In this document: piece after piece, positions 5,940 through 35,964 of the stretch
Numbering within the stretch: the stretch's first letter is position 1
How the letters are laid out: the number at the start of each line of letters is the position of its first letter
Assembly: GCA_050273025.1 (NCBI GenBank)
Contig: CP158635.1
Span: 10,664,001 to 10,728,000, forward strand
Reading direction: 5' to 3'
Length of the DNA stretch: 64,000 bases
DNA from: Cenococcum geophilum
Taxonomy: Eukaryota
Translations under genes and position numbers: made by a program
Notes under the pieces: generated by a model
The model's input: the letters and a program-made list of their open reading frames with translations, nothing else
The model's database searches: none
What the model was told of the DNA's origin: nothing

Positions 5940-6103
5940 TGTCGGTATAATATTCGTTTTACGTGTCACGTGCTCTATGCACGTAACCTACGCGAGACGC
6001 GTATATGTATCAACACTGCATTAGAGTAGAACCTTAAGAATCCAACTATATATCGCACTGCACGTATATTACGTCTATTGCATCGTGTTAAAGTATCCCG
6101 ACA
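5940..6103 (+). repeat. Copia-1 3' LTR (164 bp)
   Basis: TG...CA termini; matches 230-380 with 13 extra bp. Confidence 0.95.
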
Positions 6104-9100: not shown

Positions 9101-10394
9101 ACTATCTATTAACGCTTTAAACTATTAATAGTACTAATTAATCTACAAATTTAGGTGTTGTTCTTAAATTTCTTTAAGGGTTTAAGGCTTTACTACTAGC
9201 TCCCTCTAGTTTTATAGGCCTCTACTTTTCCTAACTATTAGCTGCTTAATCCTTATATACTTAGCTTACTTTTTAGCTAATACCTAGTTCGCTTTTTATC
9301 CTTAATATACTATAGATATATATTCTCTAGGCATTTCTACCACTATTATCTGTCTAAGTATTTTTCCGTAAGGAATCTTTCTAATTAAAGTATTAAATTC
9401 TCTAATTTTTATACTTCTACTAGATGCTAGCCGTATATATACTTAATATTTTTATACTATTACTTATCTAGTACCTTAGGCTAATACATTCTTATAGGGT
9501 ACTTTTAATTCTTTTCCTTTAGATTCTTATGCATATTATATATATTATCTATATATATAATCTATACTAATATATAATATACTAGGTGTCTTAGGTTAAT
9601 TCTTAGCTTATCTTTACTTATAAGTGTAAACCTTTATCTAGCTAATCTAAACATTAGTCTATTATTTACTAATACTATAATTTGTTTTTTACCTCTTTAG
9701 TTTTTTAATCTTCCTTTAGATTTCTTAACGTTATAATTAATGCTCCTTTAATATAACTTATGCGTTTCTCCGTAATTACTTAGTCTTAAATAACTTTCTT
9801 ATTAGCTATATATAAAAGTCTTCTCACTTATTATTATGTCGCTACCTATACTATTTTTAGTATAGTTCCGTAAGCGTATATAATCTATCTATAAGAAAAT
9901 ATCTTATTATTACTGCATTATTATAACCTTTAGTGTGCCGTTCTTTAAATCTAGTTAAAACCCCTAGGTCCTCTTCTTGTTCCAGTTCTTTAAGCCACTT
10001 TACTCTTAGCGTGCCTACTCTTAGCCTATTAGTAATCTTTTATATAGGTACTTTAACCCTAAGTCTACCTAATATTCTTAACCCTTAGTAGCCTCTTTAT
10101 TTTTACTACGCTTTAATTTAGTTTTTAAATTCTTTTTAGCCTTCTTTTAGTCTATATCTAGCTATAGGATCCTCTAGATCTATAAACTTTATAATTCTAG
10201 TATTAACTATTTAACTTTAAGGCTAAATACTTTGTTTACCTACTATAGGTACTTTTACTTATTCTTTGCAGTCTTAAGTCCCTAAGAACTCTCTCCCTAT
10301 ACTTATTTTTTTGCCTTTAAATTAAGCTACTACTCTACTCTATCAATTTTTATTTATTATAGGTCCTTAAGCTTATCTTATCTTATACTAAGAA

Positions 10395-10823
10395 TGTAAC
10401 GGAGCCTTGTAGCAAGAACTACGGTAAACTCGTTAATAGGCTAGGTATATAGGTAATGCAGAAAGTTAATAACGTAATAATAACTGGTGGAGTAGTTGCC
10501 TAATAGATTAACTCTAATTATATTCTAAGAATTACTATAAAGAAAGGAACTATCTAGGTAGGGACTAAGGTCCTTTAAATACACAAACTGCGCCTAAGAA
10601 AGTCCTTACTCCGTTTACTCTATTTACTCTATCTACTCTATCTACTCTATTATAGATCCTATAGATTACACAGATTATATAGATTATATTATATAACCTT
10701 AGCTACTATTCCTTATTATATAGTTCTATGGGTTCTATCCTAGACCGTACTTATATTAACTAACTAGCTTCTTCTAACTCCTCTCCTAGTAGTTATAACA
10801 TTGTACTTAAAGCGTCCATAACA
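10395..10823 (-). repeat. Element B 3' LTR (429 bp)
   Basis: TGTAAC...ATAACA, adjacent to the PPT, repeated at 28638-29057. Confidence 0.95.
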
Positions 10824-10931
10824 CCATCTCCCTCCTCTTTATCTTTGTCCTTAAAGATACCTAATATCTCTAGGTTATTTATTAGAGGTATAATATCCGT
10901 CTAATTAATTTAGTTAATATCTTTACTTATT

Positions 10932-11605
10932 ATACCTAAAGCAATTTCTTCTTCTTCTACAGCTCGTTGGTCTCGTACCGTTACTGCAATATTATCTCTT
11001 AGTAAGATTATACTATCTCTATATTCTTGTTATATAAAAGAAGGGTTAGTCTATATTACGCTAGCGAGTCCTTTATCTTAGCAAACCCTCTTTATATTTA
11101 GAGTGTACTAAAGCAAACATTTAATTATCCTATGATGTTTACTTAGTCTCTAATGCTAAGTATACGCGTTCTACTACTCTTAATAGTCTTTAAGTTCCCT
11201 TATTAATTACTACTAGGGTCTTAGGTTTAATCTACTACTATAAAGCTTAATAATAAGCTTTCGGTGGCGCTGGCGGAACTTTATTACTCCTATAATGCTA
11301 AAAAAGAGGCTACTAATACCTAGCAACGCGCTTTTAATTCTTATCTTACTATATCCACTCGGTTAATCCGTCTTAAAAAGGTATATAAGAAGGTGCGTTT
11401 TAAGGAGTAGAAACTTATAAAATAAGGTTTATAGGAACTTAGCGATAAAAGAACAAATTCTCTTCTAATAGAGAAGGAAATAATTTTAAGTAGTTTAGCA
11501 ATCGTTCCTCCTAGGTCCCCCTTAGGTGGTTTATTCTTTAGTAATCCTTTTTTATTAATATTGCCTAACCTTTTCTCTTCTAATACTCCTATATCTTTTC
11601 TATAG
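10932..11605 (+). pseudogene. Antisense accessory gene of element B (Zn2Cys6-like cluster plus helical tail, probable intron), RIP-degraded
   Basis: Reads (M)PKAISSSTARWSRTVTAILSL...LECTKANI; homologous to 46575-47225 in element E; lies between the pol end and the 3' LTR. Confidence 0.65.
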
Positions 11606-13275
11606 CATTTTTTTAAATTTTCTAGTAGCTCCTAGGTAGTCTTATTATAGCCTATCCACTTTACTTTATACTATATTTTATTATTAACGTTTTTATAACT
11701 AATAATCTTTAAAACTTGCCATTTGTCTTCTTTTTATTCTCTATACGTATTTACTTTATAAACTGGTGGCTTAATATTCCTATATGCTGGCTTTAGCATC
11801 GCAATGTACTATATAGGGTAGATCTTTATCTTAGCTAGTAGATTTAACTTAAATATAACTAATAAAATCTTCTATATAATTTTAAAAGGTCCTAGTCTAA
11901 CGTAGTTTAACCTTTTACTTAATTGTTAACTCTTAAAATTTTTGTGTAGTAGCTATACTTTATCTCCCTCTTTAAGATCTAGTCCCTTAGATCTCTTAGC
12001 GTCATAGTACTTTTTTATTCTTTACTGTACCACCTTAGCTATTTCCGTAAGGTTTATATAAAGATTTATTAATATCTCTATTTTTTACTTAGTTATACTA
12101 CTTATCTTCTTTACTTAATATAGCAATAATAATATTCTTGGCTTATATCCGTAATTTGCCTTAAATAGTAATATACCTATTTCTTTTTGGGGTATTACGT
12201 TATATATAAACTATATAACTGGTAATAATGATATCTAATTATTCTGTATATAATTAATATAATATCTTAAATACTACTCCAGTGTTTAATTTAATCTTTC
12301 CGTTTAACTATCTATCTGTAGATAATATATAATAGAAGTTACTACTTAAACTCCTTATTCCGCTAAGAATACCTCCTAGAATACTGCTATAAATCTTAAA
12401 TCTCTATTTAATATAATTTTACTTAGTGCTCTATATCTTATAAACACTTCTTTAATATAGATTCTAGTGATATCTTCCGCTAAGATTTCTTCTATACATG
12501 CTATAAAGTATCCCTACTTTATTAACTTATCTACTATTACTAAGATTACGTTATAATCTTATCCAATAATAGGATCTTTTAATTTTAGCAACTTTATAAT
12601 AAAGTCCTATAATATAACCTTCTATAGTCTCTCTAGTATTTTAATAGGTTATAGCTCTCTATATAGCTTATATCTTATTAGTTTATTCCTTTAATAATCT
12701 AAACATTCCTTTATAACTTATCTTGCTAGTCTCTAAATTCTATTAATAATATACTCCTCTTAAAGTCTTAATACTAAGCCCATAGCTCTATTATATCCTT
12801 AAGTTAGTCCCTTATAAAATAACTTAATAAATTCTTTTATAATGCTTTTTAGTATATATATTACTTCTTAGTTTTTATACTACTCTAAGTTTAGATTCTC
12901 TATTTGTGCGTCTTAGATTTTTTATAACTAATTACTTTCTAGTAACTTATAGGTCTAACTAATTTCTCTAGTTACTGCGATTTTTAGGTAATTATATCTA
13001 ATTAATCCGTCTATATCTTTTTATAGTAAAGCCTCTAATAGCTTTTTATTATTCTGTAGTTTAGCTTTTCTACTTAGAGCATTTACTTATATATTATCTA
13101 TACCCTTAATATACTAAATCTTAAAATAGTATTCTATAAGTATCTCTACCTATCTAACCTATCTCTAATTAAGTTCTTTTATTATTAGGAACCCTGTTAG
13201 GTTTTTATAATCCATCTTAACTATAAATAGTTTCTCTATACCTTATAAAAATGCTCTCTATTTTTAAAGTACTAT

Positions 13276-13541
13276 TGTGGTGGTGTGATTTGGCCCCTGG
13301 ATTTAATATCTAGATTGGGCATAGCTTTGGGAGAGCCTAGGCCTTATATAAGTTATATAGATCGGTCTAAAGCCCTTAGAGTCAACAATAACTCGGATAG
13401 GCACGACTAACCAAGAATACATTCTTTCCTTTCTTCTTACTAACTGCTTTCCTACTGATTAATTACGACCGACCAACCGACCGACAGATAGATAGATAGC
13501 ATTGAGACTTTCCTATCTAAGAGTAATCGTACCCTCCTATA
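13276..13541 (+). repeat. Element D 5' LTR
   Basis: Direct repeat of 23633-23898; contains (ccga)n and (gata)n microsatellites. Confidence 0.95.
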
Positions 13542-13799
13542 TATTTTATGGCATTCCATATAGGGACAACGGCAAGCTCTTTGGATTAGAAGTCCAGCGC
13601 TATATATATAGGAGACGCATAGGAACGTGCTGCAGCCACTAAAAACTGTTAAGTTACTATTACCGGAAGCCGTTAAGTTACTAATAGGTGCGGAAATTAA
13701 GCACGGAACTACTAGCGACGTACGCGCAGGCATCACTATTACTAAGATAAGTTAATAATACTTTCGGAGATTATTATCTAAGACCTATAGTAGACGGAA

Positions 13800-16700
13800 T
13801 AGACGACTAGGAGTGGGAATATAAGCATAGGGTACGGCAGGACGGAGGATAAAAGAGAGGGTTATAATGCATCAGGACCAGTAGAAAGAAGTCTTTAATT
13901 TTTTATTTACTATATTTGCAACAGTCTATACAATTCTTCTAGCATTTATACAAGCCTCCCTTAAATTTATAAGAGCAATGGTGATAGGACCAATAAAGGG
14001 AATACCAGGGATGCTAGGCCTATTCTACAATAACGGCGGAGAAGAAAGTAGGCAGCCTACTAACCTACGAAGTTTTCCTAACCTAGAGGATGCGGTACTA
14101 GACCTAACTCCTACAACGTCCAGAACTAATGACCTTCAGCAAAAAGAGGACAAGAACTAGGAGGTTAACTTACCTATCCTAGGAGAAACTGCTAGTCCGT
14201 TATCTTGTAATAAACCACTAATAGAATAAGATAAGGTATATATTATAGCCCAGCCTATACTAGCTCTAGAGACTTTAGGGACTCCTTACTTTACGGGACA
14301 AAACATATTATAATTTATTAAACAATATAAGCGACTATATATTCAACACTGTATTACAGACAATAAGAAGCATTAAGGACTTCCGGAATATTGCGACTAT
14401 TAGATAGGGACCTAGATCTAAAGTCTATCTAAGTTTATTATTAGTAGATGGACGGAACTTATAAGAAAGCTTTGGACAGACTACTAAGGAAGTAACTACT
14501 TTTAACAAGTTAAGACGGTAGAATTCTTAGAAGCGTATATACTATAGTGTAAGAACAACCTACCTAGTAGTATACGCGAGTACTACAGACAATTTACACT
14601 AATTTCCTAGAAGGTTACTAAAGCTGGTAATTTAAAAAACCGTAAATAAGGATACTGGTTTATAAAAGGACTCCTATTTAAATATCGAAAATATACTATA
14701 ACTAAGACAGGAGCTAACCTGGATAGACGAGAGTCTTTTAACTTCCACCTACTAAGGAGGGCTGTAGAAGATAGGCTTAATTCGCATGAGGGCGCAAACC
14801 GTTTATTAATAATGAACCCTAAGGAGTAAGGTCTCCAACAACTAGTTAAACAATTCCACGAGCAGCAGCCGGCTATATTAAACCAGAGAGATGCTACTCT
14901 TTGGCCGCCCGTAGTCTCTTAGCTAAATAAGTCGGTAAGTGCCCGTTATATAACCTAAGAAACGGACCCTAAGCTAGAGAGCCTTACTAGTTAACTCCAG
15001 AAGCTTAATCTTGGGACGGTTGAATTGGTAAGCGTTGCATCTTTAATGCCGTTCTTTAATAGAATTCGCTAAGACCTAATACGGTATATACAGCTCCTAA
15101 ATAAGGCATTAGCGCGTTAAGAATAAGCAGGTCCGCGACTGGTAACGAATAATAATAGACTGCTGCCGTCCTATAAAGGGGCGCTATAAGAGTAATATAA
15201 GCTAGGTCTAGGAAGGTATAAAGGACTAGGAAACCCTAGTGCATACTAGGTATAAGATAAGACGTGTTATAAATGTGGAGGCCCTTATTATTTTATTAAC
15301 TAATACCTAGAGCTCTAAGAACTAGTTAGCCGGGGGTTCCTGTATATAAATAAGAACAACCAAATCTGCACTAGAACACGTTAGCGCCTAGGAAATCCAC
15401 TCCCGTATTTACCGAGCAGCTATTAAATTTAGTTCCTTAAAGACTGGCTAAGGTAGAATGCGAATATCGATCCTAATGCGATAGCAATAGGCATCTAACT
15501 AAATACGTCCTTAGTAGAGCTTATAGAAAGCAATGGCGCTAAAAGTAAAGAAGAGCTCGGTGAGTCTTGGGAAGATATATACCAAGTAGAGTCGGTATAC
15601 ATTAATCTAGTAGGAGCAGCAACCCAGTCGCAGCCTATAACACGGTTATACGATCTTAGGAAGCTAAGAGGAGATATTAGGGTAATAAAACTACCTCTAA
15701 AACCGACTGGTTCGCAACCGGCAATAGTTTAAAATATATAACTAGAAGGACATATCCAAATCGCACCACGACTATAGCGGCAGGCCCCCTATTTACTAGT
15801 AAATAATAAGGAGACTAATAAAATAGACTATGCTAAATAGCTAAGAAGAGAAGTAGAGTAAGGAACGAAAGCGACTATAACCGCTAAAGCACCGCAACTA
15901 AAGCCGGTTAGGATAATGGACATATTAAAAGGGAACGTCCTAAGCCTAACCGTAATGGCGGGCAAGATCTTATTAAAAACTATTGAAGTTACTATTGGTA
16001 ACTGCCTTGTGTATATGCCTAAAGTCGCAAGGTTATTCTTTAAGCCGCTCCCGCCACCTCTTGTAAAACCTTACCAACAAAAGTAAGAGGGCGTTAAGGC
16101 ATCTATGTTATCGGCGTACCTAACGTTTTATGCTAATTAAGCTAGCCTAACGACTATAAAGGTAGACTAGATTAAATGGGAAGCAGGATTTACCTGGTTT
16201 TAACGACAATATCTAAAGGTAAAAGTACAGATAGGAGACAAAAGGGTTAAGTGCTTAATTAACTCTAGAGCGAAGCTTAACCTTATTAAGGAAAGTGTGG
16301 CTTTATAACACGGCTTGCCGATATTAAGTCTACCCCTATAGTTGTAGGGCGTACGTCTAACGTCTATAAATGGGACTCAGTTTAAGTTTATTAGATTAGT
16401 GTATATAGCCGCTATAGTTATAGGGGACGTCTCAATATCCACGACTTTTATTGCTGTGGGAGAAATATCACATAAGGTAATACTTGGTGAGCCGTAGTTG
16501 GTAAGGGCTAGGTTAGCAACGCAGCGAACCGTAATAGGCCAGGTATCTTATATTATTTAATTAGAAGATGGCGGAGTTAAAATAAGGTTTTTAACATCCT
16601 ATAAGGACGCAATGTTCCTTAGACTAGATAAAGGAATTAGTATAGGTAGTAGTTTAGGAAACGTGTAACTGGTGCGACTGCTAGGATCGTATCTGGGGTT

Positions 16701-19700
16701 ACTTATAACCTGGTATATTAGGATAAGGAGGACGCCGAGGACAAAGAGGAGGGAAATAAGGTGCAACTTCGATAAGGACGTTTACTATTCTAGATATTCG
16801 CTAAATAGGGCAATTAACGGGAAGAAGAGCACAACGCTAGATAGAAAAAGCTCGACAGCGAAACGTTAAAGGAAGTCCTAAAGAAGCACTTGGGAGAAAG
16901 GTAGAAGCCAGTGTTTAAAGCAAAGGCTAGATCCCTTATATATTAAATGTTAAAGATAACGGATCTATTTATAATATAAATAGAAGGCTATAGGAGTAAG
17001 GCCTAACAGAACGCTATAAGTATAGCAACTGCGTATAAACAAAAGGCAGAGAAGGTCCGCCTGGTTAATTCGTCAGCACCAGATAGAACGGTTATAGGAG
17101 GAATAATAGAGTGGCGAGAAGTAGCCTTGCGTCGGCAAAAGGCGTCTATTTAAGAGTTGCCCCTTAGTCTATATAATCATTTCCTTAAGCCGCGGTATAC
17201 TAAGCTAGCCTATAGTACACGGCTAAAGCTAGAATAATTAGAGCGTGTAATTATAGGGGACCTCTAGCCAAGAGAACGAGAAATCTTTAAGGCCATATTG
17301 TTTAACTGAGAAGAGGCTCTAGTATAGGAGTTCTCTAAGATGGGTTATATTAGTAGAGACGTAACTCTACTATTAAAGATTAAGACTGTACCGTATAAAG
17401 TATAGTAAGTACCGAACTTCCCTATACCAAAAGCCCTATAAGGGGAAGTAATAAATATATTATAAGAATGACTAGCTTAAGGGACTCTAGAATATTACAA
17501 AAGCCTATATAGGAATCTATAGTTTCTTATAAGCAAAAAGGAACACAAGAAGTACCGGCTAATTAACGCGGCGATAAATATTAACTGAGTAACTATTAGG
17601 GACGTAAATCTGCCGCTATATACTAATAAGTTTTCTAAGGAGTTTATAGGGTGTAAAGTTATATCTCTAGTAGACTTCTTCTCTGGATATAACCAATTGG
17701 AGCTAGATATAGAAAGCAGGAACCTAATAGCCTTTATAACACCTCTGGGACTTCTATAACAAACAATAGTACCTATAAAAGGAACAAATTTAGTAGCCTA
17801 GTTTATAAGGATAATTACTAAGATTCTAGAGCGATATATCCCACACTATACCCTGCCGTTTCTGGATAATATTACAGTAAAAGGACCACAGACAATGTAT
17901 AATAGAGAAGAGAGCCTTTTAGGCGTGCGCAGATATATTCTAGAATATATTGTGTGGCTAAACGGAGTACTTATAGATTTGGAACGAGCTGGGTATACGA
18001 TCTTAGGCGTAAAGTCTTATTTCTATAAGGACGAGATTATAGTAGTTGGTTACCGCTGTAATGGAAAGGGGCGATATCCAAAAGAGTTAAAAGTCGCAAA
18101 GATTATTTACTGGAGAGACTATGAAGACGTTATATCTGCCCAAGCCTTTATAGGAGTTGTCGTGTATTACTAAATATGGGTAAAAGACTTCGCAATAAAG
18201 GCAGAGCCAATCTTCCGACTGCTATAAGTAAACGTTCCGTTTGTATAGGGTATAGAGCAGATAACTACTATAAAGACTCTAAAGTATGCAATTACTACTA
18301 TACCCGCGTTAGTTTAACTGGATTATAGTAAGGGGGCTAGGCTAATTGTTCTCGCCGTTAACGGATGTAAGAATGGGTGGGAATGCGGTCTTATATAACT
18401 GGACGTGTAAGGTCGTCGCCACCTATATTAATATAAAAGCGGCATCTAGTCTTAAGTGGAGCAAAAGTACGATTCAGGAAAGCTTAAATATTAGGTATTA
18501 CTGCATGCATTAAAGAAGTGTTAAGTATACCTATACGGCGTCCGCTTTACGGTTAAGACAGATATGAATACCTTAGTTACGTAACTAAATTATACTACCA
18601 CTGATTTACTAGGAGCCTTAATAACATAATAGCTAGCATAGATTTAGTTATAGGACTTCAATATTAGGCATGTTTTAGAGAAGAAGAATAGCCTAGCTAA
18701 TAGACTATTATAATAACTACTAGATGGCGAACGACCTAATAAGCCGACTAAAGATATTAAAGAGTTTATTAACTGTAAACTAAGTGCTTTAGAATATACG
18801 GCTAGCCTAGTTAAAATAGAGGTGGATCTATTACTAGAAGACTTATATTCTAGGGAGTCTTAAAAGATTATAAAATGGCTAGTAACCTTATAATGTTTAG
18901 AAGAAATAAATACTAAAGAATTTAAAAAGTTTAAACGATATACGCTGAAATTCCTAGTGTGCAATTAATAGCTCTTCCGCTAATAATCGAAAAATGTACT
19001 AATGCGAAGGGTAGTTAATAATAAGGACGCTTAGTAAGAGATTATTAAAAGCCTTTATAATCAAAGCGGATATTACGGATAAGAAGGAACATATTAGAGG
19101 ATCTTAAATTAATATTAGTGGCTAGGGCTATGGGATTAGATATTATAGTATATTAAGTCATATCTATAATGCTAGGAGCGACAGCCAAAACAGAAAGAAG
19201 AAGCGATGTACCCTATATAGAAGTCCACCTTATAGCAATAAGTAGTAGTAGATATTATGTTTATACCTTTAAGCCGTTTTAGATTCCGGTACCTGGCTAT
19301 TACTTAAGAATATATATCTAAATAGGTAGAAGCTCGGGCCCTTTAAAATAAGGATATAAAAAGTATAGCGAAGTTCCTCTATAAAGATATTATCTGCTAA
19401 TGGGGAGCATTCGGACAGCTCTCTATAGATAGTAGAGAAGAAAATACTAACGTTACTGCTACGCTCGCAGAACTCTACAATATTAAGAGGGTTGTAGCTT
19501 CCGCTTACTACGCTTAGGCGTAAGGCTTTATAGAGCGAGGCTATAAACCTATAATAGACGCTTTAGCGAAGATGGATGGCTTATAGCTAGATAATCTTTA
19601 TACCGTTTTATGGGTAGATAGGATAACTATTAAGCGGCTTATGGGAATAACACTAGTAAGAGTTATATGCGGATATAAGCATGTCTTTCCTATTAAACTC

Positions 19701-20280
19701 TGTATACCTACTTAGCAGATACTACCTTAGCAAACAGTCCAGACTACTATAGAGCTACTAGCACTTTATGTAAAGTAGTTTAACTAAAGAGACGTAGATA
19801 TAAAAGAGGCTGTTATATATAAGACGACTAAGGGTAGTAAATAAGAAGTACTTTAATAATACCTACCGCATTTGTTAGGACGGATTTAAGGTTAGAGATA
19901 TAGTTATGCTTTATAACACGCAGCTTAAGTAAGACTATTCTAGTAGTCGCAAGTTAGATCTAAAATGGCTAGGCCCGTTCTGTATATGTAAGAGTTACCC
20001 TTATAAAGGATGGTACTTAATTAAGGATCTTAATGGTACACCGTTCCGTAATTAAACTCCTAGAAATAGATTAAAGAGGTTTTATTAACGACAGATATCT
20101 AAAGTCTACTAGGAAAACCGGCTTAACTAGTTAGGCGGAACTATGCTATAAGAAATAACAGCAGAGCTAGAGCCTAAGAAAGATATACAAAATCCACCAG
20201 TATTGTAACGCCGCGTAGTTTAAGAAGTACGCGTTTTAGAAAGATCGTTTAATAGAACTAAGTATGAAATATTTAACTAG
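13800..20280 (+). pseudogene. Element D gag-pol pseudogene (start approximate)
   Basis: Zn knuckle CYKCGGP(H)...(C) ~15265; protease LI(D)S(G)A(E)L ~16255; RT SLVDFFSGY(D)QL ~17664 and PFLD(D)I ~17856; RNase H ~18340-18700; integrase ~19070-19900; no chromodomain seen. Confidence 0.9.
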
Positions 20281-20479
20281 GGGACAGTCAAGTTCTGCGG
20301 CGGGGGAGGGGATATAGATAATAGCCGTGCAATCCTTTTATTTACTGTATTTCCTAAAGCTCTTTCTATTACGCGTTTTTATTTGCTTTTTTAGTTAGGA
20401 ATTTAATGTATATTAATAGTAAGGTAAGGGTAGAAGAATGTTTGTAAATAACTATATAGTATTATTCACTGTAAAGATA

Positions 20480-23400
20480 TTAGTTCCGCTTACCGCCTTT
20501 ACTAAGCTAATAGCGATTTTCCGTACTAGGTATAGAAAATCATAATTAGTTTATTTAACGATTAGAGCTGGCAGAACTCTATACTACTACCTAAATTCGG
20601 TAGACTATTTAGATTAGGAAACCCTATTCAGAACTTTACCTTTTTGCCCTTAATAAACCTTAGAGATAGTTATAATTAGCTAAAGCAGAAACTAAGCAAA
20701 ATTAAAAATAATGGTATGCTTATTATATCTTTATCTAGCAAACCGCTGGTCCTCTATAAAGGAGCTAAGTAACAAATTAGTGACGTCTTAACGAAAGTTA
20801 GAGGCTTTGCGGTCAATTGGCGTTAAGCAGTGCTTATCTAAATCTGTGACGAGATTTTGCTCTTACGAGAAAACTACACAGATACGGCTAGTGTAGTAGT
20901 CAATTTCATTAACTAAGATAATAGACTGTAAGTATCTTTAGGAAAGGACGCATTTATATTAATCTTTAAGGATATTTTTGATGTTAGCAAAATGGCTGAA
21001 GATTAGAGAAACCGATATAATAAAGCTAGAGAAACTATCCGAAAGGCCTAGGGATAAAATGTTCTTAACGGACTACTAAAATACGCAGTCTTCTATAACT
21101 TCCTCTCCGCTATCTAAAAGCTCGTAATATACCTACTTCTTAAAGCTATAGTAAGAGTTAATAAAGCTCTAATCGATAGGCTTAAACGTCTAGGACGTGG
21201 CATTAAGAACACTACTTAACTATAGCCGACCAATTTTACGCTCGCATTTAAGATGTTAGGAAGAGCAATATTAGACTAGGTGGTGAATAAGTATAGTTTA
21301 GGAAGATACTTGACTAGCTTCCTTATTCTAAATAAGGACCTACCGCTAAGAAGTAGGAGATTAACTACTGTGGGACTAGAGGTTATTAATATTGGAATTA
21401 GATAAGTAGGAAAAAGCTTAGCTCTTATACTGCGAATATATTTATGGCATACTTCTAACATAATAAATCTCTTAGCCTTTTAGCCATTAACACCTGTTCG
21501 AGGAGGAGGCGTTAGCATTATGCTAAGCCCGTCCCAACAAGGATCGCCTATATTAGTTGACTCGCCTTTATTATCTATAAACGAGAGCATTCTTGCAGCT
21601 AGAACGCCTATTGGCTCGCCCCCGTAGCTGCTAGTATCTTCATTAAAAAGGAATCCAAGAAGGGGGCTAATAATTGCTCACCCAGAAGTAGGGGGGCTAG
21701 GAGTAGAATTAATGTTTAATAAGAACATTATTAAGCCGGGAGATAATGTAGAGTATATTAAGGAGGCTATAGATGCTATGGCGGTACTCTATACAAAATA
21801 AGGATGCGACTATAAGGATAACGTGCTAGCGTATCTTAAGGTGTCCCTAAATTAAACTACTAAAATTAAACCAATAGAGGTTATAAAGCTCTTACGCAGC
21901 TGGTATAGGGCGGCTAGTTCTAATCCGGAGATATATAAGGTCTACTAGATGTATACTTAAGCAATAGGAGGACATATGGGTTTGGCGATAAAAGGTCTAA
22001 ACTATACCGCACTATATTACAGACTCCGTTTAATATATTACGCCTATAACCACCTCGGCACTATAAAGACCGATCCCACTATATACTCCTAGTTTAGAAA
22101 GGCTTATAGACCTCTAGTTCTGTTTAATTCCTTAGGACTATATAAGTTTATTTATAACTTAGCGCTAAGGTTTTCCTACGATAGAGAGGCTTTACTTAAT
22201 TAGATAATATTACCAGAAGACTAAGAAGTATAGCAGCGAGAAGGATCCGTAATTTCGAATGTGTTTAAATAATAATAGGATTTTAGCATCTTAATAATAA
22301 TTAACAAGGAAATGTGTATATACCGCTATTATTAGCGTCTAATTAATAGGCGGCTAAATTATGGCTAGTTAAGAATGATAGTCTATAGTCTCTGCTAATA
22401 GCTAATAAGATAAGACCCTTAGTATTATTGTTTTTATTACGCCCTCAGACCTAATAGCTAGTGGTGACTTATCTCCTACCCTTATTATACGAAATTCGCA
22501 GTTAAAGGAGACTCTATAGCTTTCCGCCACATTAACGTTAATATTCCCTCGCTTCTTAAAAGTAAATACGGTGCCGATATAATCTAAGGGAGCGTTTCTC
22601 TAGATAATAAAACTAAGGATAACTATATAATTATTCTACCCGGTATATATTACCACCTAGAATTATAATAGGAAGATCTTAAGGCGTGAGGATTAACTAA
22701 AGGCGACGGATTTGTTTATAAGATCTCTAACTAAGACTAGACTACTAAAGACGTAGAAAAGTATGCGACTAACTAGGTAGCTCAGCTATATAAGAAAGGA
22801 GATATATATATAACTATGCCTTACCTTCCTTATAAAGCGAAAGGACCTTTAACTAGAACCTAGCAAACAATACTACTATAGTTTGTTAGTATTTAGGATA
22901 ATTATAATAACCTTAAGGTTACTAAAGGAGGTACTTAGGTAAAGTTGGTAAATGCGTACCAAGACTTAAGAGCGCCGCCCTATACGCCGTCTAGATATAC
23001 TAATCTCTACAGCGCAATTTTATATCGCTTCCCTATAGTAGTTAAGCTTATAGCTACCAGCGCTCTATCTAACGCCCTTTTTAGTAAACAATAATAGGAT
23101 TCTCTAGTGGTAGTTTAAGATTATAACCTTTTTCTTAATAGCAACGGGAACGAAGTTGGGAAATAGATACATTCCTACCGTTTTAGGGCCGTTAAGAATT
23201 ATAAAGATACGTTTAAGCTAATATGTGTAACTAAGATAGAACGCTTTAATAGCCGCTCTTACTTCTACTATATTAATAATAGAATCGATTCTTTAGCTGT
23301 TATAGTAGATCTAAGTAGAGTACCCCTAGTTATTATAGAAGGATAGAGTTATATGGAGTTGCCTAAAGAATTATAGGACAGAACTAAGTAAATAGAAGGG

Positions 23401-23600
23401 CGCGAAAGAGCTATATTATCTAAGAGCCGCCAATTTAAAGTCTCTTTTACTGCTTAGCTAAGTAGATAAGAACGGTCTCATTTAACCAGAACGGAGTCTC
23501 CTTGTTTGCTATCTCGGGTTTGTAGTAAGGGTAAGGAACGCATACGATTACCTACCGCGCCTTCGTTTTAAAGATAAGGAGTTTTAGAGTTTTAGAAGTT
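20480..23600 (+). pseudogene. Accessory gene inside element D with a C-terminal PhyH-like 2OG-Fe(II) dioxygenase domain, RIP-degraded (ends approximate)
   Basis: One frame ~22300-23250 reads LISYPYYTKFAVKGDSIAFRHI(D)VNIP...II(Q)GSVSLD...ILPG(M)(H)...KKGD(V)(R)ITMP(H)LP(H)(G)AKGP...(R)(R)T(M)L(P)(W)FV(G). H-x-D at 22528-22536; distal His codon (CAT>TAT) at 22831. Putative intron GTATGC..GCTAA..TAG ~20714-20780. Confidence 0.72.
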
Positions 23601-23632
23601 ATTAGGGGACAACGACTTAGGTAGGGGAGGTA

Positions 23633-23898
23633 TATAGTAGTATAATTTAGCCCCTAGATTTAATATCTAGATTAGGCATAGCTTTAGGAGAGCCTAGGCC
23701 TTATATAAGTTATATAGATCGGTCTGGAGCCCTTAGAGTTAACAATAACTTAGATAGGCACGACCGACCAGGAATATATTCTTTCCTTTCTTCTTACTAA
23801 CTGCTTTTCTACTAATTGATTATAACTAACTGACCGACCGACAGACAGATAGATAGCATTAAGACTTTCCTATTTAAGAGTGGTTATACCTTTTTACA
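23633..23898 (+). repeat. Element D 3' LTR
   Basis: Copy of 13276-13541 differing by transitions; ends TACA. Confidence 0.95.
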
Positions 23899-26800
23899 CT
23901 ATAACTATACCTAATAACTCCTTATTATAGATATAATAGTTTAGTTCCGGTAGTATTATCTTTTAACTATAGTATACTACTAGGTACTATCCATTTTTAT
24001 ATTTTTATAGGAAGCACGCTCTTAATATAAAGTCTAATATATCCGTTTTAACCACTATCTCTAGTTTTAGTTGGTAAATTTTAAGGATTAGGTCCTAAGT
24101 AAACAACTCCTTAACCTCTTTAAATAGTTTCCTTTACTCTTCTCCCTATACCTAAGGTTCTTCTTTTTTTATTAACCTTATAAATAGCTTAATATCCTTT
24201 AACTATTAAGCTATAAACCTTCTATAGTAATTATAAAACCCTAAAAATAATCTTAACTGCGTAACGTTCTCTAGTTTTTATTAATTTACTATAGCCTTAA
24301 TCTTCTTTAGATCTATACTAAGTTAGCTTAGTTTAATAATAAATCTAATAAAATCTATTTTTCTAGTAAAGAACTTGTATTTCTTAATTACTACTAGTAT
24401 CTGTTTTTCCTATAGTCTCTCTAAGACCTATTTAACGTATTCTCCGTACTCTTCCTTGCTTATTAAGTAGATAATAATAATATTAAGGTATACTATAACA
24501 AATTTATCTAAGTATTCTCTTAATATATTATTAATACGCTTCTAAAATGTTACTAGTATATTTATAAGCCTAAATTGTATAACTAATAGTTTATATAGTT
24601 CTTCCTTTAACCTAAAGGCTGCCTTCTATTTATCGCCTTCCTTAATTTTAATCTAATAGTATACCTATCTTAGATCTATCTTTATAAAGATTTATATATT
24701 ACCGATTCTATCTTAGATTTTGCTAATTAAGGGTAAAGAATACCTATCCTTCCTAGTAATGCTGTTTAACTGTTTATAGTTAATATATAGTTTAAGTTTC
24801 CCGTTCTTCTTTAGTATAAATAGTATTAGATAACCTGCTAATAACTATAATAGTCTAATATATCCCTTTTATAAGTTCTCCTAGATAAACTCTTTTAGTG
24901 CTCTCCCTTCTTCTTTAGTAAGCTTATAGATTAAAAAAACCTTAGACTTATTTCTAGTTTTAATTCTATTTTATAGTCCTATACTATATACTCTAACAGC
25001 TTTTTACTTTTTAGTAACTATAGTTTTTTACTATATTTATAGTATCTCTTTAGTATATAACTTAGTCCTTTATCTATTTCTTTATAGGTTGCCCCTACTT
25101 AGTATTATACTATTTTAGCTTATTATTACGTTTTACGGCGTTAAGTATCTCTAATATTAACCTAACCTATAATCTAATTAATCTTTAGATTATATTCCTA
25201 TAACTAAGGTATTCCTAATACTACCTTATTATTCCCTAATAGTAATATATTAAAAGACATCTTAATTTATCTTCCTTTAATAATTATCTAAATTAGTCCT
25301 ATTTTAAGATTAATAATGCCTCCTCTATAGGCTATTAGATCTCCTAAAATTATAACTAATAAATAAGGGTACTCTTTTTACCTATACGGTAGCCCCATCC
25401 TTTTAACTACTATTAGTAAGATATAGTTCCTTATTACTTTACTATCTACTAGCGCTTTAAACTATTAATCTTATTATTTAACTTATAAATTTAGGTGTTG
25501 TCTTTAAATTCCTTTAAAGGTTTAAGGCTCTACTACTAGCTCCCTTTAGTTTTATAGGCCTTTACTTTTCCTAACTATTAGCTACTAGATCCTTATATAC
25601 TTAACTTATTCTTTAGCTAATACTTTATTCGCTTTTTATTCTTAATATATTATAAATATATATTCTCTAGGCATTCCTACTACTATTATCTATCTAAGCA
25701 TTCTTCCGTAAGAAATCTTTTTAGTTAAAATATTAAGTTTCCTAACTCCTAAACTTCTACTAAATGCTAGCTGTGTATATACTTGGTATTTTTATATTAT
25801 TGCTTCTCTAGCGCCTAATATATCCTTATAAAGTATTTCCGGTTCTTTTCTTTTAGATTTTTATATATCTTATATATATTATCTATATATATAATCCATG
25901 CTAATATATAATACGCTAGGTGTTTTAGGTTAACTCTTAACTTATCTTTATTCTTAAGTTTAAACCTCTATTATATTAATCTAAACGTTATAACTTTATT
26001 CGCAGGTACTAAGATATATCTCTCACTTCTTTAGTCCTTTAATTGTTTCTTTAGATCCTTTAATATTATAATTAAGGCTCCCTTAATATAATTTATTGCT
26101 TTTTCCGTAATTAGGTGGTTCTAAATAACTCTCTTATCTAACTATATATAGAAATCTTTCTACTTGTTATTATGTCTCTACCTATACTACTTTTAGTATA
26201 GCTATTAGAGTGTATACGGCTTATCTATAAGGAAGTATCTTCTTATTACTATGTTATAATAGCCTTTTATATACTATTTCTTAAACCTAGTTAAAATCCC
26301 TAAATCCTCTTTATTTTCTAGTTTAGTAAGCTACTTAGCTCTTAGCGTACCTGCTCTTAGCCTATTAGTAATTCTTTATACTAGCGCTCTATTTTATATA
26401 TAACTTAATATACTAGAACTTATATCTAGTTTCTTTTCTTACTATATAAGGATTCTTGCTTTAAACTTATTTATAGTTTCTTACTATTTATATCTTATAA
26501 TTAAATCCTTAAAGTTCTTTTACTTCTTAATTGTAATATTGACTTTTTAATCTTTAGGCTAAATACTACGTTCCTCTAGTAAGTCTTTTAGGTTTATATA
26601 TCTATCTCCTAATCTAACTGCTGTTTATATTATAGATTCTTTAATCTATAGCAAAACTTTTTGCTTCTTACGTGTAGGTATCCTAATTTGTTCTTTAAAT
26701 TCTTAGTTCCTTAGATTCTTTAATCCTAAGCTCGCTTCTTTTTTAAGCTATGCTCTAGCCTTAGTCTAACTAGGCTTTATTAATATTCTTATCTCGTCTT

Positions 26801-31531: not shown

Positions 31532-32041
31532 CTAGGGCTACTAAAGAATAATTATAAGTGGATTAATTACTTAATAGAGACCTATATTTTTGCTATTAGC
31601 GCCTAGCTATACTCTTTATTTATAACTACTTTACTTTACGGCCCTATTATAAAGCTAGTTACTTTATAGAACCGCTTTAAATAGTCTATCTATAATAATC
31701 TACTTTACTTTCTAGCCTACCAACCTAATACTCCTCCTACTATTACTAAGGACGATAGCGCCTATCTTAATTACGGCCTATACTTTATCTATTAGATACT
31801 TATAGATTAGTAGAAAACGCTTATAGACTATAGCTTACCCTAGTTCTAGTACTAGTAGGGTATTATTATAAAAGGAAGTAACCTACTTCTTATAGTAGAG
31901 CTACTGCAATATAACCCTATAAAGGAAGGACGCTAGTTTATTAAGCTATACTAGTGGCCAAATACGGATTAAGTAGCGTGCTTTAGTACTATTATTGCCG
32001 CTATAAATACGGATCTATAGACGGCCCGCTTCTTCCTTTAG
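31532..32041 (+). mobile_element. Helitron RepHel fragment (linker region up to the start of the Pif1 helicase), RIP-degraded
   Basis: Reads LGLL(E)(D)(D).(E)WI..L.E...FA.(G)A(Q)L(R)SLF...L(W).RF...I(C)(D)(D)L...(D)YGLY...KTL.DY(G)LP...NTD(Q)VACFSTII...RFFL(Q); stops just before Walker A. Confidence 0.8.
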
Positions 32042-32491
32042 TCGCTGATTGGCTTACCCTTACATTATACCTGCCCAAATTGGGTTAGAGAATTGGAGCT
32101 CCAAGAGCTCCACGGCTTCAAATCCGCTCCATCCAGCCAATCAAATCGACAGGATCCAGTCCAACCAAACTATAGCTCCACCATGGAGATCCAAGATTAA
32201 CCCAGTCTAAAAAGATCACTGCTTCTAAGCTCTATTGGTGGGACCTGCCCTGCGTACTAAACCGCGGTTAGCCTATAGAGTATTATAGGCTTAATCGCGT
32301 ACGATCCCCCTTAACTCCTGCTAGAAAGCCTTTAGATAGTAATCAAATCACCATCGGGTCGCCTTTGGGGCAGAGCTGCACCACTACACTGCTGATCGTA
32401 TGCAGGTATACCAATCGCCTTAGGAGATAATCGCGTACGATCCGGATAGCCCTAGGCTCGCAGCTGGATAGCCACCGTCTCCATTCTTCTT

Positions 32492-32700
32492 GATCCGTAT
32501 CTATCCAACCGTTATATACGGATGCGATCTGCCAGACGTCTGCTGGTGTAGCTGCTCTGCAGCATACGCGGTTGTCCTAGGTAAGGTAGAGGACCTAATC
32601 CGTATTCCAATGAACCTTTGTATGCGGATGCGATCTGCCAGGTATCCGCTGGTGTGCCCGCTCCGCAGTATACGCGATCGTCCTAGGTAAAAGTGGATGA
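32492..32700. repeat. Two-copy imperfect tandem repeat, unit ~106 bp
   Basis: atccgtat...cggatgcgatctgccag...gctggtgt...atacgcg...gtcctaggtaa occurs at ~32493-32584 and ~32598-32690. Confidence 0.8.
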
Positions 32701-33147
32701 TCGGAGCCTTCGGCTCGCCGCCGACTACCACCCACAAGGGTGTAAGATCGAACGTAAGGCATATTGCCCAGGTGTACGGTAGGGAGCAGGCAAGCCGAGC
32801 ACGAGTCACAGGAGAGTCGGTGGAAGAGGACGATATGGTAAAGAGTAGGTATGGTAATACCCCAGTACAGAGACGAACCGATGAGGAGGACAGGAGGGCC
32901 GCAAGCCCGAGTAAGGGATAAAAGATCCCTTACAATTAACGGTTAACAGCGTTCCAAAACCGTTAGCCAACGATAGCAAAAATTCACATAACAGCCTTAG
33001 AAATCACTTAGAACTATAATAAGATCAGCTAGAAAGGAACGACTCATGTTGGCCTAAGAATTGCTAATAGCTACAGCTGTTATTGCTCGATTGATTCTGT
33101 CTCAACAAATGAAAGCTACAGCCCGTTAAGGAGCCTGAAAAGACGTT

Positions 33148-34149
33148 TCAATGAAGATTTGGTGCTGGAAACTCTCTAGTCAGGTCATTAACGCTAACAT
33201 ATCGGGACAGCCCAATCCAACCCCACCTGAACCAAAGCATTTGGCTCACGTGCCCGTCAGTCATGGCCTTCTGTGCTCGTCTGTACCCGGATCCATTGCT
33301 TAGAAAGATTAATTTTTCTGGATTTGGATCGCTGCGATGAACTCCTGACCTTTTCAACGAGGATAACAAGACGGAGAGAGGAGCATCAAACAGAGATATG
33401 TATTTTCGTACTATGTTTGTTGTAGTGAGAGAGTAAATCGATACCGCGGCTCCAGAAGGGTCGACCTTGCGTACCCAGTGAAGCGCGCCGTAGTACAGCG
33501 AGATGTGGTTGGCATGCGAAGATATTCCTTGGTTGTCGAACGTAATGAGAACGTCGATGTCAATGTCGGAGGAACTAAGGGTTTGGCTCCCGGAAACTTT
33601 CTGCTTATTCTTCACGGAATAAGAAACAAAATTTTGGGATAATACATTGGCGATGTCATCGGCAGCCCAGGTTGTAGTCATGGCGTCTGGGAAATGGTCT
33701 GTGTCCTCAATAACGTCAACATCATTTGGAGAGCGAAGACCCAAGATGGCAGCAGATTTAATCAGTTCACTTTTTCGCGTTTCGCGGAGACTCTCGTCTT
33801 CGCCTGCTCTGCGTCAGATGTCGTGATCTAGCTAAAAAACCACGCGGCATTCCGAGTACTCATTTGACGTACCGCTGCATAAGCATAGTATCTTGACGTG
33901 ATTCCTCAGTGAGGGTTGGGTTAAAGCTAACACTGTAGGCGAGAAAAACATTGCTTCATCATCCGGATGTGCGATCAAGAGAACTATGCGCTTGTCGTGA
34001 AGAGTTGGGAAGTAAGCGCGAACGAAATAGGCCAAGCTGAACCATCCTGCAAAGAAGGAGAGTGGAAGAACGAAGAAGAAGAAGAAGCCCATTGCTATAG
34101 GTAGTGCGTGGTTGCTGTTAGTGTTGCGAGCCCGCTGCAGCTCGGTCAT
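33148..34149 (-). CDS. GPI12: N-acetylglucosaminyl-phosphatidylinositol de-N-acetylase (GPI12/PIG-L). Exons 34149-33873 and 33803-33148 (310 aa; 291 aa if the start is ATG 34092)
   Basis: N-terminal TM segment; IAHPDDEAMFFSPT; ITFDNQGISSHANH; HVSQMLWFRWGWIGLSRY. A 69-nt GT..CTGAC..CAG intron (33872-33804) joins the two ORF-track ORFs in frame. Confidence 0.93.
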
Positions 34150-34761
34150 TATATACAGACCTGGGGTGCTGCTGTATTGTGAGGTGGGAATGGGTGGCGC
34201 GGCTTGGGGTGGGGTCCGCACAAGGCTGAAAACCGCTAACCTCCGTTGGGGGGGTTCCGAGCGGTTACTGAGAGCCAACCGTCGCCATCCATCACATCCC
34301 CCTTTGATCTATCCTGCAATCTCTCACACGAGCGCCGCTCGGCGCGTCGCTTTGTCACCAAATGCAGCCATGGCTTTCCACAGAATCGTTCCATCATTCG
34401 CTGAAGATAACCACCACCTAAATCTTAAAACAGCAGTGCCTTTCAGACCTTGCACAAAGTTGCCCTGTTTGTATGGAGGGAATGCGTGTTTCTATATACA
34501 GTATGCATGCCTTCCTTCTCTAGCTTTTCGTGTCCCGGCTTTGGCAGCCTCTTTACCTGATACTTTCACAATATAGCCCCTGCTGTCAATTTAGTGTTTC
34601 TGTTGGAGGTGGGGTGGAGCAATGGCTGTTCGAGATATTTCATCGCTCCTTCGCTATATGCTGCATACCTCGCATTATAATTATGCGTATATTTTGTGTC
34701 TGCCTCTATTTCTCTCTTTGATCTAGTTCTCATACCATTCTCTGCTGTTTGAAGACTCTTA
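34150..34761. promoter_or_regulatory. Divergent intergenic region, probable shared promoter
   Basis: ~610 bp between head-to-head start codons; pyrimidine-rich tracts upstream of 34762. No specific sites identified. Confidence 0.4.
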
Positions 34762-35964
34762 ATGCATTTGCAGCCAAACACAACCTTGGACGGATGGCAG
34801 AATGGAGGTACGGACCGTTCATCGTGGAACATCCTCTGGAGTTGCCTTGCCACAATAATATCCTGTACTTGGACGGTTCTTCACCTCAACGTTCCGCGTC
34901 GCGGCTCAACCGAGAATGAGAATATCTTACGCAAACTGCGCTGGCTAGTTCTAACTGCGCTGGCACCAGAGTTGATTACATCTTACGCATTCGGGGAATA
35001 TCTACAAGCTCGGCGCTTGCTATCTGAGCTCAAAGAAGTTGGCGTCGCAGAGCAGGAGTGGAACCTATCCCATGCCTTCTACTTGAGCATGGGATCACTG
35101 AACCTCCGAACGGCAGACGGATACGAGTTTCCCCTCTGCAAACGCGAGAAAACCGAAGGTGGATGGGAAGTGCCATCTTGCAACTCCGATATCGTAGTTC
35201 TTCGAGCCAGCAAGGTGCTGCCAACATCATATCCGATCATTACGAAGGAAGAGATTCAAGACCGCAGCAAGGCCGACCCATTCACCAAGGCCTTCACACT
35301 TATACAAAGCACCTGGTTCGTTGTCAACGCCGTTGCACGCAGCATTACAGGTTTGCCTATTTGCCCTTTAGAGATTAGCTGCATAGCATATGTGTTCTGC
35401 ACATGCGTCACATATGGTTTCTGGTGGAAGAAACCCAAAGATATTTTAACAACTCTCGTTGTTCCTTGCCATTTCAACATAACTGGACTGCCAACGGACA
35501 TCCAACAGTCTATTAGAAGCTTTGATCCGGTAAATCGGGTACAATGCCATCAAGCCTGGAGCCGGCTGGACCTTCCGGACACGGAAAAAGATGTCATCAA
35601 TGTCATTCGCGGCCGTATGCCCGCATTGATGGGCCTGATAATCGGTGTCACGTTTTGCTCTATACACATCGCGGCTTGGAACTTTGAGTTTCCCAGTAGA
35701 GCTGAGGCAATCTTATGGCGGCTTTCAAGTGTTGGTGCCGCCGGGATTCCGATACTTTCCTTAAGCATCGTTTTCATTCGGGGTCTTTCACCTGCTACTT
35801 TTGACAGCCTTTGGGCTTATGTGCTCACGTTGTATTGTATGTTTATCATCTTATATGCAAGTGCGAGGCTCGCCGTGATCGCATTGCTTTTCTCTACTTT
35901 AAGGAATTTACCGGTTGGATCTTTCGTTACTATTAATTGGGCGAGGCAAGTACCACATATGTAG
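34762..35964 (+). CDS. Uncharacterised fungal multi-pass membrane protein (400 aa, single exon)
   Basis: Intact ORF with several hydrophobic helices and motifs of a widespread fungal family of unknown function: ILWSCLATIISCTWTVLHLNVP, APEL, HAFYLSMG, IQDRSKADPF, WWKKPKD, HIAAWNFEFPS, YASARL, W..QVPH. Confidence 0.9.
   Translation: MHLQPNTTLDGWQNGGTDRSSWNILWSCLATIISCTWTVLHLNVPRRGSTENENILRKLRWLVLTALAPELITSYAFGEYLQARRLLSELKEVGVAEQEWNLSHAFYLSMGSLNLRTADGYEFPLCKREKTEGGWEVPSCNSDIVVLRASKVLPTSYPIITKEEIQDRSKADPFTKAFTLIQSTWFVVNAVARSITGLPICPLEISCIAYVFCTCVTYGFWWKKPKDILTTLVVPCHFNITGLPTDIQQSIRSFDPVNRVQCHQAWSRLDLPDTEKDVINVIRGRMPALMGLIIGVTFCSIHIAAWNFEFPSRAEAILWRLSSVGAAGIPILSLSIVFIRGLSPATFDSLWAYVLTLYCMFIILYASARLAVIALLFSTLRNLPVGSFVTINWARQVPHM

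Follow-up and report, generated by a model that had tools for sequence, protein, structure and literature searches.

A stretch of 64,000 nucleotides of Cenococcum geophilum (assembly GCA_050273025.1, contig CP158635.1, positions 10,664,001 to 10,728,000 of the forward strand), referred to below as the window, contains at positions 13276-23898 a single copy of a 10.6-kb Ty3/Gypsy retrotransposon with long terminal repeats (LTRs). The copy is dead, having been killed by repeat-induced point mutation (RIP). The element has three genes instead of the usual gag and pol only, and the third open reading frame (ORF3), located between pol and the 3' LTR, is related to the Fe(II)- and 2-oxoglutarate (2OG)-dependent dioxygenases of the PhyH clan. 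The structure of the element, its intact relatives, and the fold, selection and possible function of the ORF3 protein are described here.

Structure of the element

The self-comparison of the window revealed a 254-nt direct repeat (13280-13533 and 23637-23890, 87% identity) marking both LTRs. Their full extent was deduced from the alignment with the LTRs of two intact elements, L001 and L002 (see below), and by reading the ends; the 5' LTR, which is RIP-mutated and has the form TG...TA, spans 13276-13541 and the 3' LTR 23633-23898. The element is flanked by an identical target-site duplication (TSD), CTAT, at 13272-13275 and 23899-23902. All three ORFs are on the + strand, as are all the features of the element, and tblastn with the L001 proteins indicated that this is its only copy in the window. 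The region of 13-24 kb is AT-rich, RIP-type degraded fungal DNA with a GC content of 0.33-0.39.

The remnant of ORF1, which comprises gag and the aspartic protease, extends from approximately 13744 to 16668. The L001 ORF1 matched it with 60% identity over 13699-16665 in tblastn, and the first Met of L001 ORF1 corresponds to residue 73 of the frame listed for the window. ORF2 (pol; reverse transcriptase, RNase H and integrase) occupies 16761-20280 with a TAG stop at 20278-20280, and L001 ORF2 matched it with 68% identity over 16761-19814 and 67% over 19822-20277. The copy aligns with the intact protease, reverse transcriptase, RNase H and integrase domains over their full length.

Directly 3' of pol lies a second copy of the polypurine-tract (PPT) region, with TAGGGGACA ... 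GGGGGAGG, at 20278-20312. A non-coding spacer of 444 nt (20281-20724) separates pol from ORF3 and is 79% identical to the L001 spacer, 73 of the 92 differences being C>T or G>A. The spacer contains the remnant of a palindromic hairpin (20515-20541), a decayed version of the stem found in L001 and L002. The PPT region before the 3' LTR (23603-23632) is homologous to positions 11624-11653 of L001, and a purine-rich tract, GGGGAGG(TA), adjoins the LTR.

The ORF3 remnant, a gene of 950 codons, occupies 20725-23577; its start codon is now ATA and its stop is the TAA at 23575-23577. A preliminary description, made from the letters of the window, had placed a dioxygenase-like frame on the same strand between the pol stop (20278-20280) and the 3' LTR (start 23633) of a TSD-bounded Gypsy element, and both the location and the frame were confirmed. 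The frame is of one phase over 20725-23577, and all 2853 of its bases align with the intact homologue without a single gap or indel. The L001 ORF3 matched 20725-23574 with 64% identity in tblastn. Conversely, the window translation, with X at stops, matched P0002, the ORF3 protein of L001, with E 2.9e-272, 64% identity and 100% coverage, far above chance level; the 15 matches of that search included 14 further fungal proteins of 529-999 aa. The residues that the preliminary description had restored as presumed pre-RIP readings are present in intact P0002 exactly as guessed, namely in FRHIDVN, IQGSVSLD, ILPGMHHH, KGDVRITMPHLPHGA and RRTMLPWF.

The decay of ORF3 is of the RIP type. At the positions of the 55 internal stops of the window copy, the intact copy has without exception TGG, CGA, CAA, CAG, CGG or CAC. 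C>T or G>A changes account for 548 of the 667 differences from L001 in ORF3 and for 632 of 771 in pol (82% each), in agreement with the earlier impression that both are mutated alike, and those in ORF3 favour the CpA/TpG context. Three of the four catalytic residues have been destroyed by RIP. In the HxD iron motif (22528-22536) H602 is intact (22528) and D604 has become N (22534), and in the segment 22831-22863 the distal H703 has become Y (22831) and the candidate 2OG-binding residue R713 a stop (22861).

The region at about 20500-21700 had been left as an unassigned N-terminal part. Its beginning, up to 20724, turned out to belong to the non-coding spacer, and the coding assignment holds from 20725 on, where the AlphaFold model of P0002 shows an N-terminal helical domain (residues 8-205, window 20746-21339) followed by a disordered Ser/Pro-rich linker with pLDDT below 50 (residues 211-358, 21355-21798). 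The catalytic module (residues 359-866, 21799-23322) consists in the same model of a helical part and then a double-stranded beta-helix (DSBH) core. Pfam found no family at E<=10 in the window translation (stops as X), so that the domain is visible only through intact relatives.

Intact relatives and genomic context

A scan of metagenome contigs matched 406 stretches, 342 of which encode a relative, and the best 80 of these 342, all close relatives, constitute the loci considered here. Two of them, L001 and L002, are intact elements of the same layout. In L001, ORF1 (1540-4680), ORF2 (4773-8297) and ORF3 (8746-11598, encoding P0002) follow one another on one strand between the LTRs. L002 contains the three ORFs in the same way, and its 274-nt LTRs are 100% identical, which suggests a recent insertion. 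Pfam recognised Asp_protease at the end of ORF1 (Asp_protease_2 in L001), and RVT_1 (292-432), RT_RNaseH (529-629), Integrase_H2C2 (754-809) and rve in ORF2; the sequence protease, reverse transcriptase, RNase H, integrase is the domain order of Ty3/Gypsy elements.

The C-terminus of pol was found less than 1 kb upstream of ORF3 and on the same strand at 67 of the 80 loci, a nested insertion splitting pol or ORF3 in some; across loci, the pol and ORF3 matches are separated by 360-629 nt. Six loci end at a contig end less than 500 nt upstream, where the context is not judgeable, and in the remaining seven ORF3 is inside a DNA transposon with terminal inverted repeats (TIRs) that holds an internally deleted Gypsy copy. 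Pol is therefore directly upstream at 67 of the 74 assessable loci, and the suggestion that ORF3 is a regular, multicopy part of the family is borne out. The ORF3 region is not confined to the window copy, nor does it have termini or a TSD of its own within the Gypsy element. An open ORF3 was found only in L001 and L002; the other 78 loci contain 21-55 stops each (median 42 over all 80).

Each of the 25 copies whose LTR ends could be placed, that of the window included, lies between perfect 4-bp TSDs, all of the type NTAN. Fifty copies had been tried, and the 25 with a recognisable 3' LTR terminus were chosen by eye; in the other 25, which neither support nor contradict the result, the alignment overran the terminus. 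ATAG, CTAG, ATAT and CTAT are among the duplications seen (copies in L003-L080 and the window). The constant NTAN form hints that the element inserts preferentially where TA is at the centre. P0002 belongs to a 90% cluster of 17 members, among which are other full-length proteins (949-1013 aa) encoded in different assemblies.

Protein fold, catalytic residues and family

The AlphaFold model of full-length P0002 has a pLDDT of 78 and shows, in addition to the N-terminal domain, the linker and the catalytic module, a disordered Arg/Ser-rich tail. In the N-terminal domain the pLDDT of the blocks is mostly 76-98, with 64 for the first block (residues 11-20), and R152 and D170 are invariant in 48 full-length relatives. 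No Pfam match was obtained for this domain, residues 1-210 gave no usable match in the protein atlas, and the matches to the fold of the full-length model were taken up by the DSBH core.

The model of residues 350-900, built from 132 sequences, is a double-stranded beta-helix with pLDDT 92.0 and pTM 0.90. The conservation of H602, D604, H703 and R713 among the 132 relatives is 90% or higher (H703 and R713 being H354 and R364 in the numbering of the model), and R713 is, from its position, the candidate for binding 2OG. The PhyH-like fold with HxD...H and a distal Arg, which had been proposed from the damaged frame, is thus supported by the model, the structural search and the residues of P0002. 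The iron-binding triad and the DSBH fold are both kept in the intact copies.

The comparison of the fold with PhyH, TET and AlkB enzymes, recommended in the preliminary description, favoured the PhyH clan. The top Foldseek matches in the PDB were all PhyH-clan enzymes (E ~1e-6). The closest, with VIA-align Z scores of 19.6-21.0 over 275-280 residues and a root-mean-square deviation (rmsd) of 3.1-3.6, were the DUF1479 proteins YbiU (4rgk, 7twe, 2csg) and Candida Gig2 (6akz). PhyH-type hydroxylases followed with Z 13-16 (human PHYH 14.0 over 216 residues, rmsd 3.9; proline, leucine and ectoine hydroxylases ~15), and the protein prolyl hydroxylases PHD2, P4H, OGFOD1 and Tpa1 with Z 9-11. ALKBH3 (8.5), the AlkB-type 3h8o (8.4) and NgTET1 (8.3, rank 48 in the all-against-representatives comparison) were far below the 21.0 of YbiU. 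An identity as TET/JBP or as AlkB was rejected on these low Z scores and on the lack of a Pfam match in either case; in particular, neither Tet_JBP nor 2OG-FeII_Oxy_2 was matched by the window translation, 15 members of the family or 20 further members.

The sequence-based assignments are less clear-cut. Four of 15 members exceed the Pfam PhyH (PF05721) cut-off of 22 bits (P0005 24.6, P0011 35.0, P0013 23.6, P0015 33.9), P0002 (17.1) and P0014 (18.9) lie below it, and nine have no match. PF07350 (DUF1479) was matched neither by the 15 members at E<=1 nor by 20 further members at E<=1e-3, the structural similarity being nonetheless highest to this group. For these 20, which are long or oddly matched representatives, Pfam reported no family whatever at E<=1e-3, and a sequence profile gave only chance-level matches in the PDB (E>=0.099).

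The helical part of the catalytic module contains a C-x-C ... C-x2-H arrangement (residues 361-410, window 21805-21954), of which C361, C363 and C407 are the same in all 48 full-length members compared and H410 in nearly all, and at which zinc may be bound.

Searched against 1.84 billion representatives, a 12-member profile found 2427 representative clusters at E<=1e-3, of which 618 reach E<=1e-30. The few source names available are 'hypothetical protein' or a generic dioxygenase label, with no assigned function. Among the relatives, several are from named fungi, where they lie on contigs as long as 596 kb and 4.56 Mb. Pattern scans of viral contigs (44 pattern matches) and of prokaryote genome contigs (21 pattern matches) gave no relative. 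Gene models fusing ORF3 with pol or with a transposase were absent among 4612 candidates, which is weak evidence.

Selection and expression

Between L001 and L002, two diverged intact lineages, the dN/dS ratio of ORF3 is 0.071 (dN 0.023, dS 0.33), compared to 0.079 for pol and 0.196 for the gag-protease ORF. Within ORF3 it is 0.071 for residues 1-350 and 0.053 for residues 351-870, and the basic C-terminal tail is clearly looser (0.315). The GC content at third codon positions is 0.48-0.52 in all three ORFs. A gene merely carried along, of no use to the element, would not be kept under a constraint as strong as that on pol.

Contigs of two metatranscriptome runs, and of two runs guessed to be RNA, were aligned to L001 at a likeness of at least 90%; parts of the element without cover in these four runs carry no meaning. 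Contigs 90-95% like L001, from RNA-labelled libraries and as such no proof of transcription, keep pol, spacer, ORF3 and LTR contiguous, with unbroken spans on L001 of 3963-11727, 7960-11771 and 8191-10459. Transitions in these contigs are balanced (A>G 146, G>A 146, C>T 101 and T>C 80 in one run), so that they represent a third, non-RIP lineage. Of the sampled words of the ORF3 region, 94% were present in one DNA run and 12-17% in RNA-labelled runs.

Neither a joint of a leader to ORF3 nor a spliced form of ORF3 was seen in the contigs of the four runs, which as contigs cannot show absence, starts or strand. A skip of 146 nt in one contig (8345 to 8492) was considered as a splice and rejected, its ends being GC..TC, and it looks like a length variant of the spacer; loose ends at 8527 were likewise rejected as a splice acceptor, since AG does not precede them. 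In runs X2, X4 and X5 there are contigs which match L001 only from the PPT-like motif on (8292, 11621) and have other sequence before it. To judge from these contigs, the junction region at the motif may be common to other element families.

Boundaries of the ORF3 cassette and its transfer to a DNA transposon

Both intact elements, L001 and L002, contain exactly two copies each of TAGGGGACA and of GGGGGAGG: one pair adjoins the pol stop, and the other immediately precedes the 3' LTR. The two PPT-region copies of L001 are at 8295-8326 and 11624-11651, and their local alignment score was reached by 1 of 1000 shuffles. As the PPT region is present twice, the ORF3 cassette is bracketed by two copies of it. 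The duplication could be the scar of an old acquisition, or it could provide a second plus-strand primer site. The spacer hairpin has a 12-bp perfect palindromic stem in both intact elements (-17.7 kcal/mol and z -3.3 in L001, -16.7 kcal/mol and z -2.8 in L002) and is weakened in the window (z -2.7). It is at 8539-8565 in L001, ~185 nt upstream of the ORF3 start, and could act as a promoter, as a regulatory site or as a structure in the RNA.

The seven loci at which ORF3 is inside a DNA transposon (L007, L008, L009, L011, L013, L019 and L022) have no gag or pol. They have in common a 9.25-kb unit (L007:4279-13527), ~91% alike between copies, with TIRs of ~50 bp starting CCCTACGG. Identical 3-bp flanks, i.e. 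TSDs, were present in four of the six copies examined; L013, cut at the 5' contig end, was excluded. The opposite (minus) strand of the unit has a Pfam Transposase_21 match (E 2.8e-7). In the Gypsy part of the unit, bases 1 to ~98 of the LTR are joined directly to the post-pol PPT copy, which is followed by the spacer, ORF3, the PPT and a full LTR, and GTAT flanks this part on both sides. The TIR unit thus contains an internally deleted Gypsy insertion, and the composite transposon then multiplied. From the Gypsy LTR sequence and the GTAT TSD around ORF3 it follows that the transfer was from the retrotransposon to the DNA transposon.

Surroundings of the element in the window

The flanks of the element are very AT-rich (GC ~0.25). 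At 12376-12513 and 24713-24844, on the minus strand, they contain pieces whose translations we take to be integrase-like and reverse-transcriptase-like, and the element seems to be nested in an older, more heavily RIPped retroelement. At 32000-36000, between RIPped repeat blocks, there is an island of normal GC content (0.46-0.50) with long open frames, read as a host gene island. It includes a 403-aa membrane-like frame and a frame with a motif of the HPDDEAMFF type, which we presume to resemble GlcNAc-PI de-N-acetylase.

Function of ORF3 and alternative explanations

Extra conserved genes are rare in LTR retrotransposons and usually point to a conflict with the host. It is very probable that ORF3 is an integral, selected and co-transposing gene of the Gypsy element which encodes a PhyH-clan dioxygenase, this judgement extending to everything except the class of substrate. 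The gene occupies the position that env has in retroviruses, and it is neither a passenger nor a separate insertion. The enzyme is presumably catalytically active, and would raise the replication success of the element itself.

With regard to the substrate, it is tempting to speculate that the enzyme might oxidise (hydroxylate or demethylate) a macromolecular mark on the RNA, cDNA or chromatin of the element or on a host silencing factor, and that this might delay the silencing of newly inserted copies. The TET/JBP genes of fungal DNA transposons and the AlkB genes of orchid Gypsy elements would be the precedents, and by analogy with them we prefer this mechanism and give it a serious chance, although one that falls short of even. 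A wider proposal is put forward only tentatively, as it is more probably wrong than right: ORF3 would then represent a large unannotated family of transposon-borne PhyH/DUF1479-type dioxygenases, mobile between Gypsy elements and TIR transposons, which would put off the silencing of new insertions linked to heterochromatin, methylation or RIP by acting on a mark of nucleic acid or chromatin. This would be the third independent recruitment of the kind after TET/JBP and AlkB, and the first in a fungal retrotransposon.

Several observations weigh against an anti-silencing dioxygenase. The nearest solved relatives of the fold are enzymes of small molecules or free amino acids, or proteins without a known function, and the ranking (small-molecule and amino-acid hydroxylases Z 13-21, AlkB/TET ~8) argues somewhat against an action on nucleic acid or chromatin. 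Neither Pfam, in the family members, nor the atlas, in the N-terminal domain, recognised a domain that binds nucleic acid. The window copy and 78 of the 80 loci are riddled with stops, and ORF3 has given no long-run protection from RIP. P0002 itself falls short of the PhyH cut-off. Finally, the source of the 80 loci is a group of four metagenome data sets which are related, and the loci possibly represent one or a few fungal species.

The same ranking bears on two other views of the substrate. ORF3 could be a protein hydroxylase which acts on the Gag, protease or integrase of the element or on a host factor, in the service of particle assembly, nuclear entry or integration, and removes no mark from nucleic acid or histones. 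The solved neighbours do include proline, leucine and ectoine hydroxylases (Z ~15), the protein hydroxylases PHD2, P4H, OGFOD1 and Tpa1 (Z 9-11) stand above AlkB and TET, the large conserved N-terminal domain and the Cys/His helical part could be docking modules, and selection is as strong as on pol. However, to our knowledge no protein hydroxylase belongs to the PhyH/DUF1479 branch, and we regard this explanation as rather unlikely. A small-molecule or metabolite oxygenase, the product of which would alter the physiology of the host in favour of transcription or spread of the element, or would benefit the host, agrees with the fact that the top structural matches of known function are all small-molecule or amino-acid enzymes, and PhyH-type genes of unknown role are found in giant viruses and phages as well. 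The 950-aa build with an extra conserved N-terminal domain and long disordered regions would nevertheless be unusual for a metabolic enzyme, and the selection between element lineages acts on replication of the element; this second view is accordingly held to be improbable.

The remaining explanations concern the origin of the gene. A captured host gene, or a nested insertion of separate origin, that does nothing for the element would fit the duplicated PPT region around the cassette, which is compatible with a past acquisition by recombination. Such a gene would hardly be expected at a constant position in 67 of 74 assessable loci, without termini or a TSD of its own in the Gypsy element (all 25 TSDs being those of whole elements), or with a dN/dS of 0.07 across a dS of 0.33, and two intact lineages and the third, non-RIP one keep pol and ORF3 contiguous, so that very little credence is left to it. 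A secondary acquisition, in which the ORF3 family would belong primarily to DNA transposons or host genomes and its association with this Gypsy lineage would be young and local, is a possibility to be taken seriously, but one we doubt. It is favoured by the very large size of the family (2427 representatives at E<=1e-3), by the relatives from named fungi on contigs of 596 kb and 4.56 Mb, by the presence of ORF3 in a TIR transposon of the Transposase_21 type and by the PPT duplication, which marks a cassette boundary. On the other hand, in the single DNA-transposon case the Gypsy LTR and GTAT surround ORF3, indicating the direction from Gypsy to DNA transposon, and many pol relatives (50-66% identity) are on contigs of 10-13.7 kb, a size that, judged by itself alone, would fit three-ORF elements.

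Comparison with known systems

The closest parallel to an integral dioxygenase gene in a Gypsy element is found in Phalaenopsis. Ty3/Gypsy elements of ~25 kb in this orchid contain an extra ORF for an AlkB-type 2OG-dependent dioxygenase, which demethylates N6-methyladenosine in RNA in vitro and was interpreted as a counter to host surveillance (PMC9289625). Both systems combine a Gypsy-type LTR retrotransposon with an extra Fe(II)/2OG dioxygenase ORF in many copies of one lineage. They differ in that ORF3 is PhyH/DUF1479-like (Z of AlkB 8.4-8.5), in that its host is a RIP-proficient fungus, in the smaller size of the element (10.6 kb), and in that ORF3 is known here from sequence and model only.

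The second parallel is that of the TET/JBP genes in fungal DNA transposons. These have been described, in a 2025 survey, from Kyakuja-Dileera-Zisupton, Plavaka, EnSpm, hAT, IS3EU and Helitron elements; they pass between element superfamilies and are thought to counter methylation- or RIP-type silencing, and the same survey states that no retrotransposon carries TET/JBP (PMC12730594). ORF3 is likewise an accessory 2OG dioxygenase which has passed between classes of elements, from Gypsy to a Transposase_21 TIR transposon. Unlike TET/JBP, ORF3 has no Tet_JBP Pfam match, its Z score is 8.3 to NgTET1 versus 21 to DUF1479, and its carrier is primarily a retrotransposon.

With DUF1479, YbiU and Gig2 of Candida albicans, and with PHYH, EctD, GriE, the proline hydroxylase H11, SnoN/SnoK, EvdO1 and KanJ, ORF3 has in common the DSBH core and the HxD...H plus distal Arg, at a sequence identity to the solved DUF1479/PhyH-type structures of 10-18%. 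Those enzymes are stand-alone cellular proteins of 250-450 aa, whereas the ORF3 proteins have 850-1000 aa, with an N-terminal domain, a linker and a Cys/His helical part, and are encoded by mobile elements. A fish gene that is also called Gig2, met in the literature, is unrelated. PhyH-annotated proteins of giant viruses and phages (BFVD) match the ORF3 model at E 1e-6 to 1e-9; they are short and uncharacterised, and the resemblance observed is one of fold. AlkB domains also occur in the replicases of plant RNA viruses, and in these viral cases, as in that of ORF3, a 2OG oxygenase is carried by a selfish genetic element.

A search of the published literature, Repbase and unpublished transposable-element libraries being outside its scope, gave no PhyH-type or other dioxygenase in a fungal LTR retrotransposon. 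The word 'dioxygenase' has no occurrence in PMC3248453, and a mention of PhyH in PMC5987419 was rejected as a precedent for such cargo, as it refers to an ordinary secondary-metabolism gene.

Dioxygenases of the 2OG type borne by transposable elements are, as such, already known. What is new is the branch of the enzyme, the host kingdom for retrotransposon-borne 2OG dioxygenases, the documented jump between element classes, and the large unannotated family behind ORF3. A fungal Gypsy family thus carries a different branch of the superfamily to which the TET/JBP and AlkB enzymes belong, under selection as tight as that on pol, and its elements look recently active, as indicated by identical LTRs. 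With a cheap enzymatic and genetic test, a large set of fungal 'hypothetical proteins' could be given a function, and it could be seen whether retrotransposons use enzymes to fight RIP or heterochromatin.

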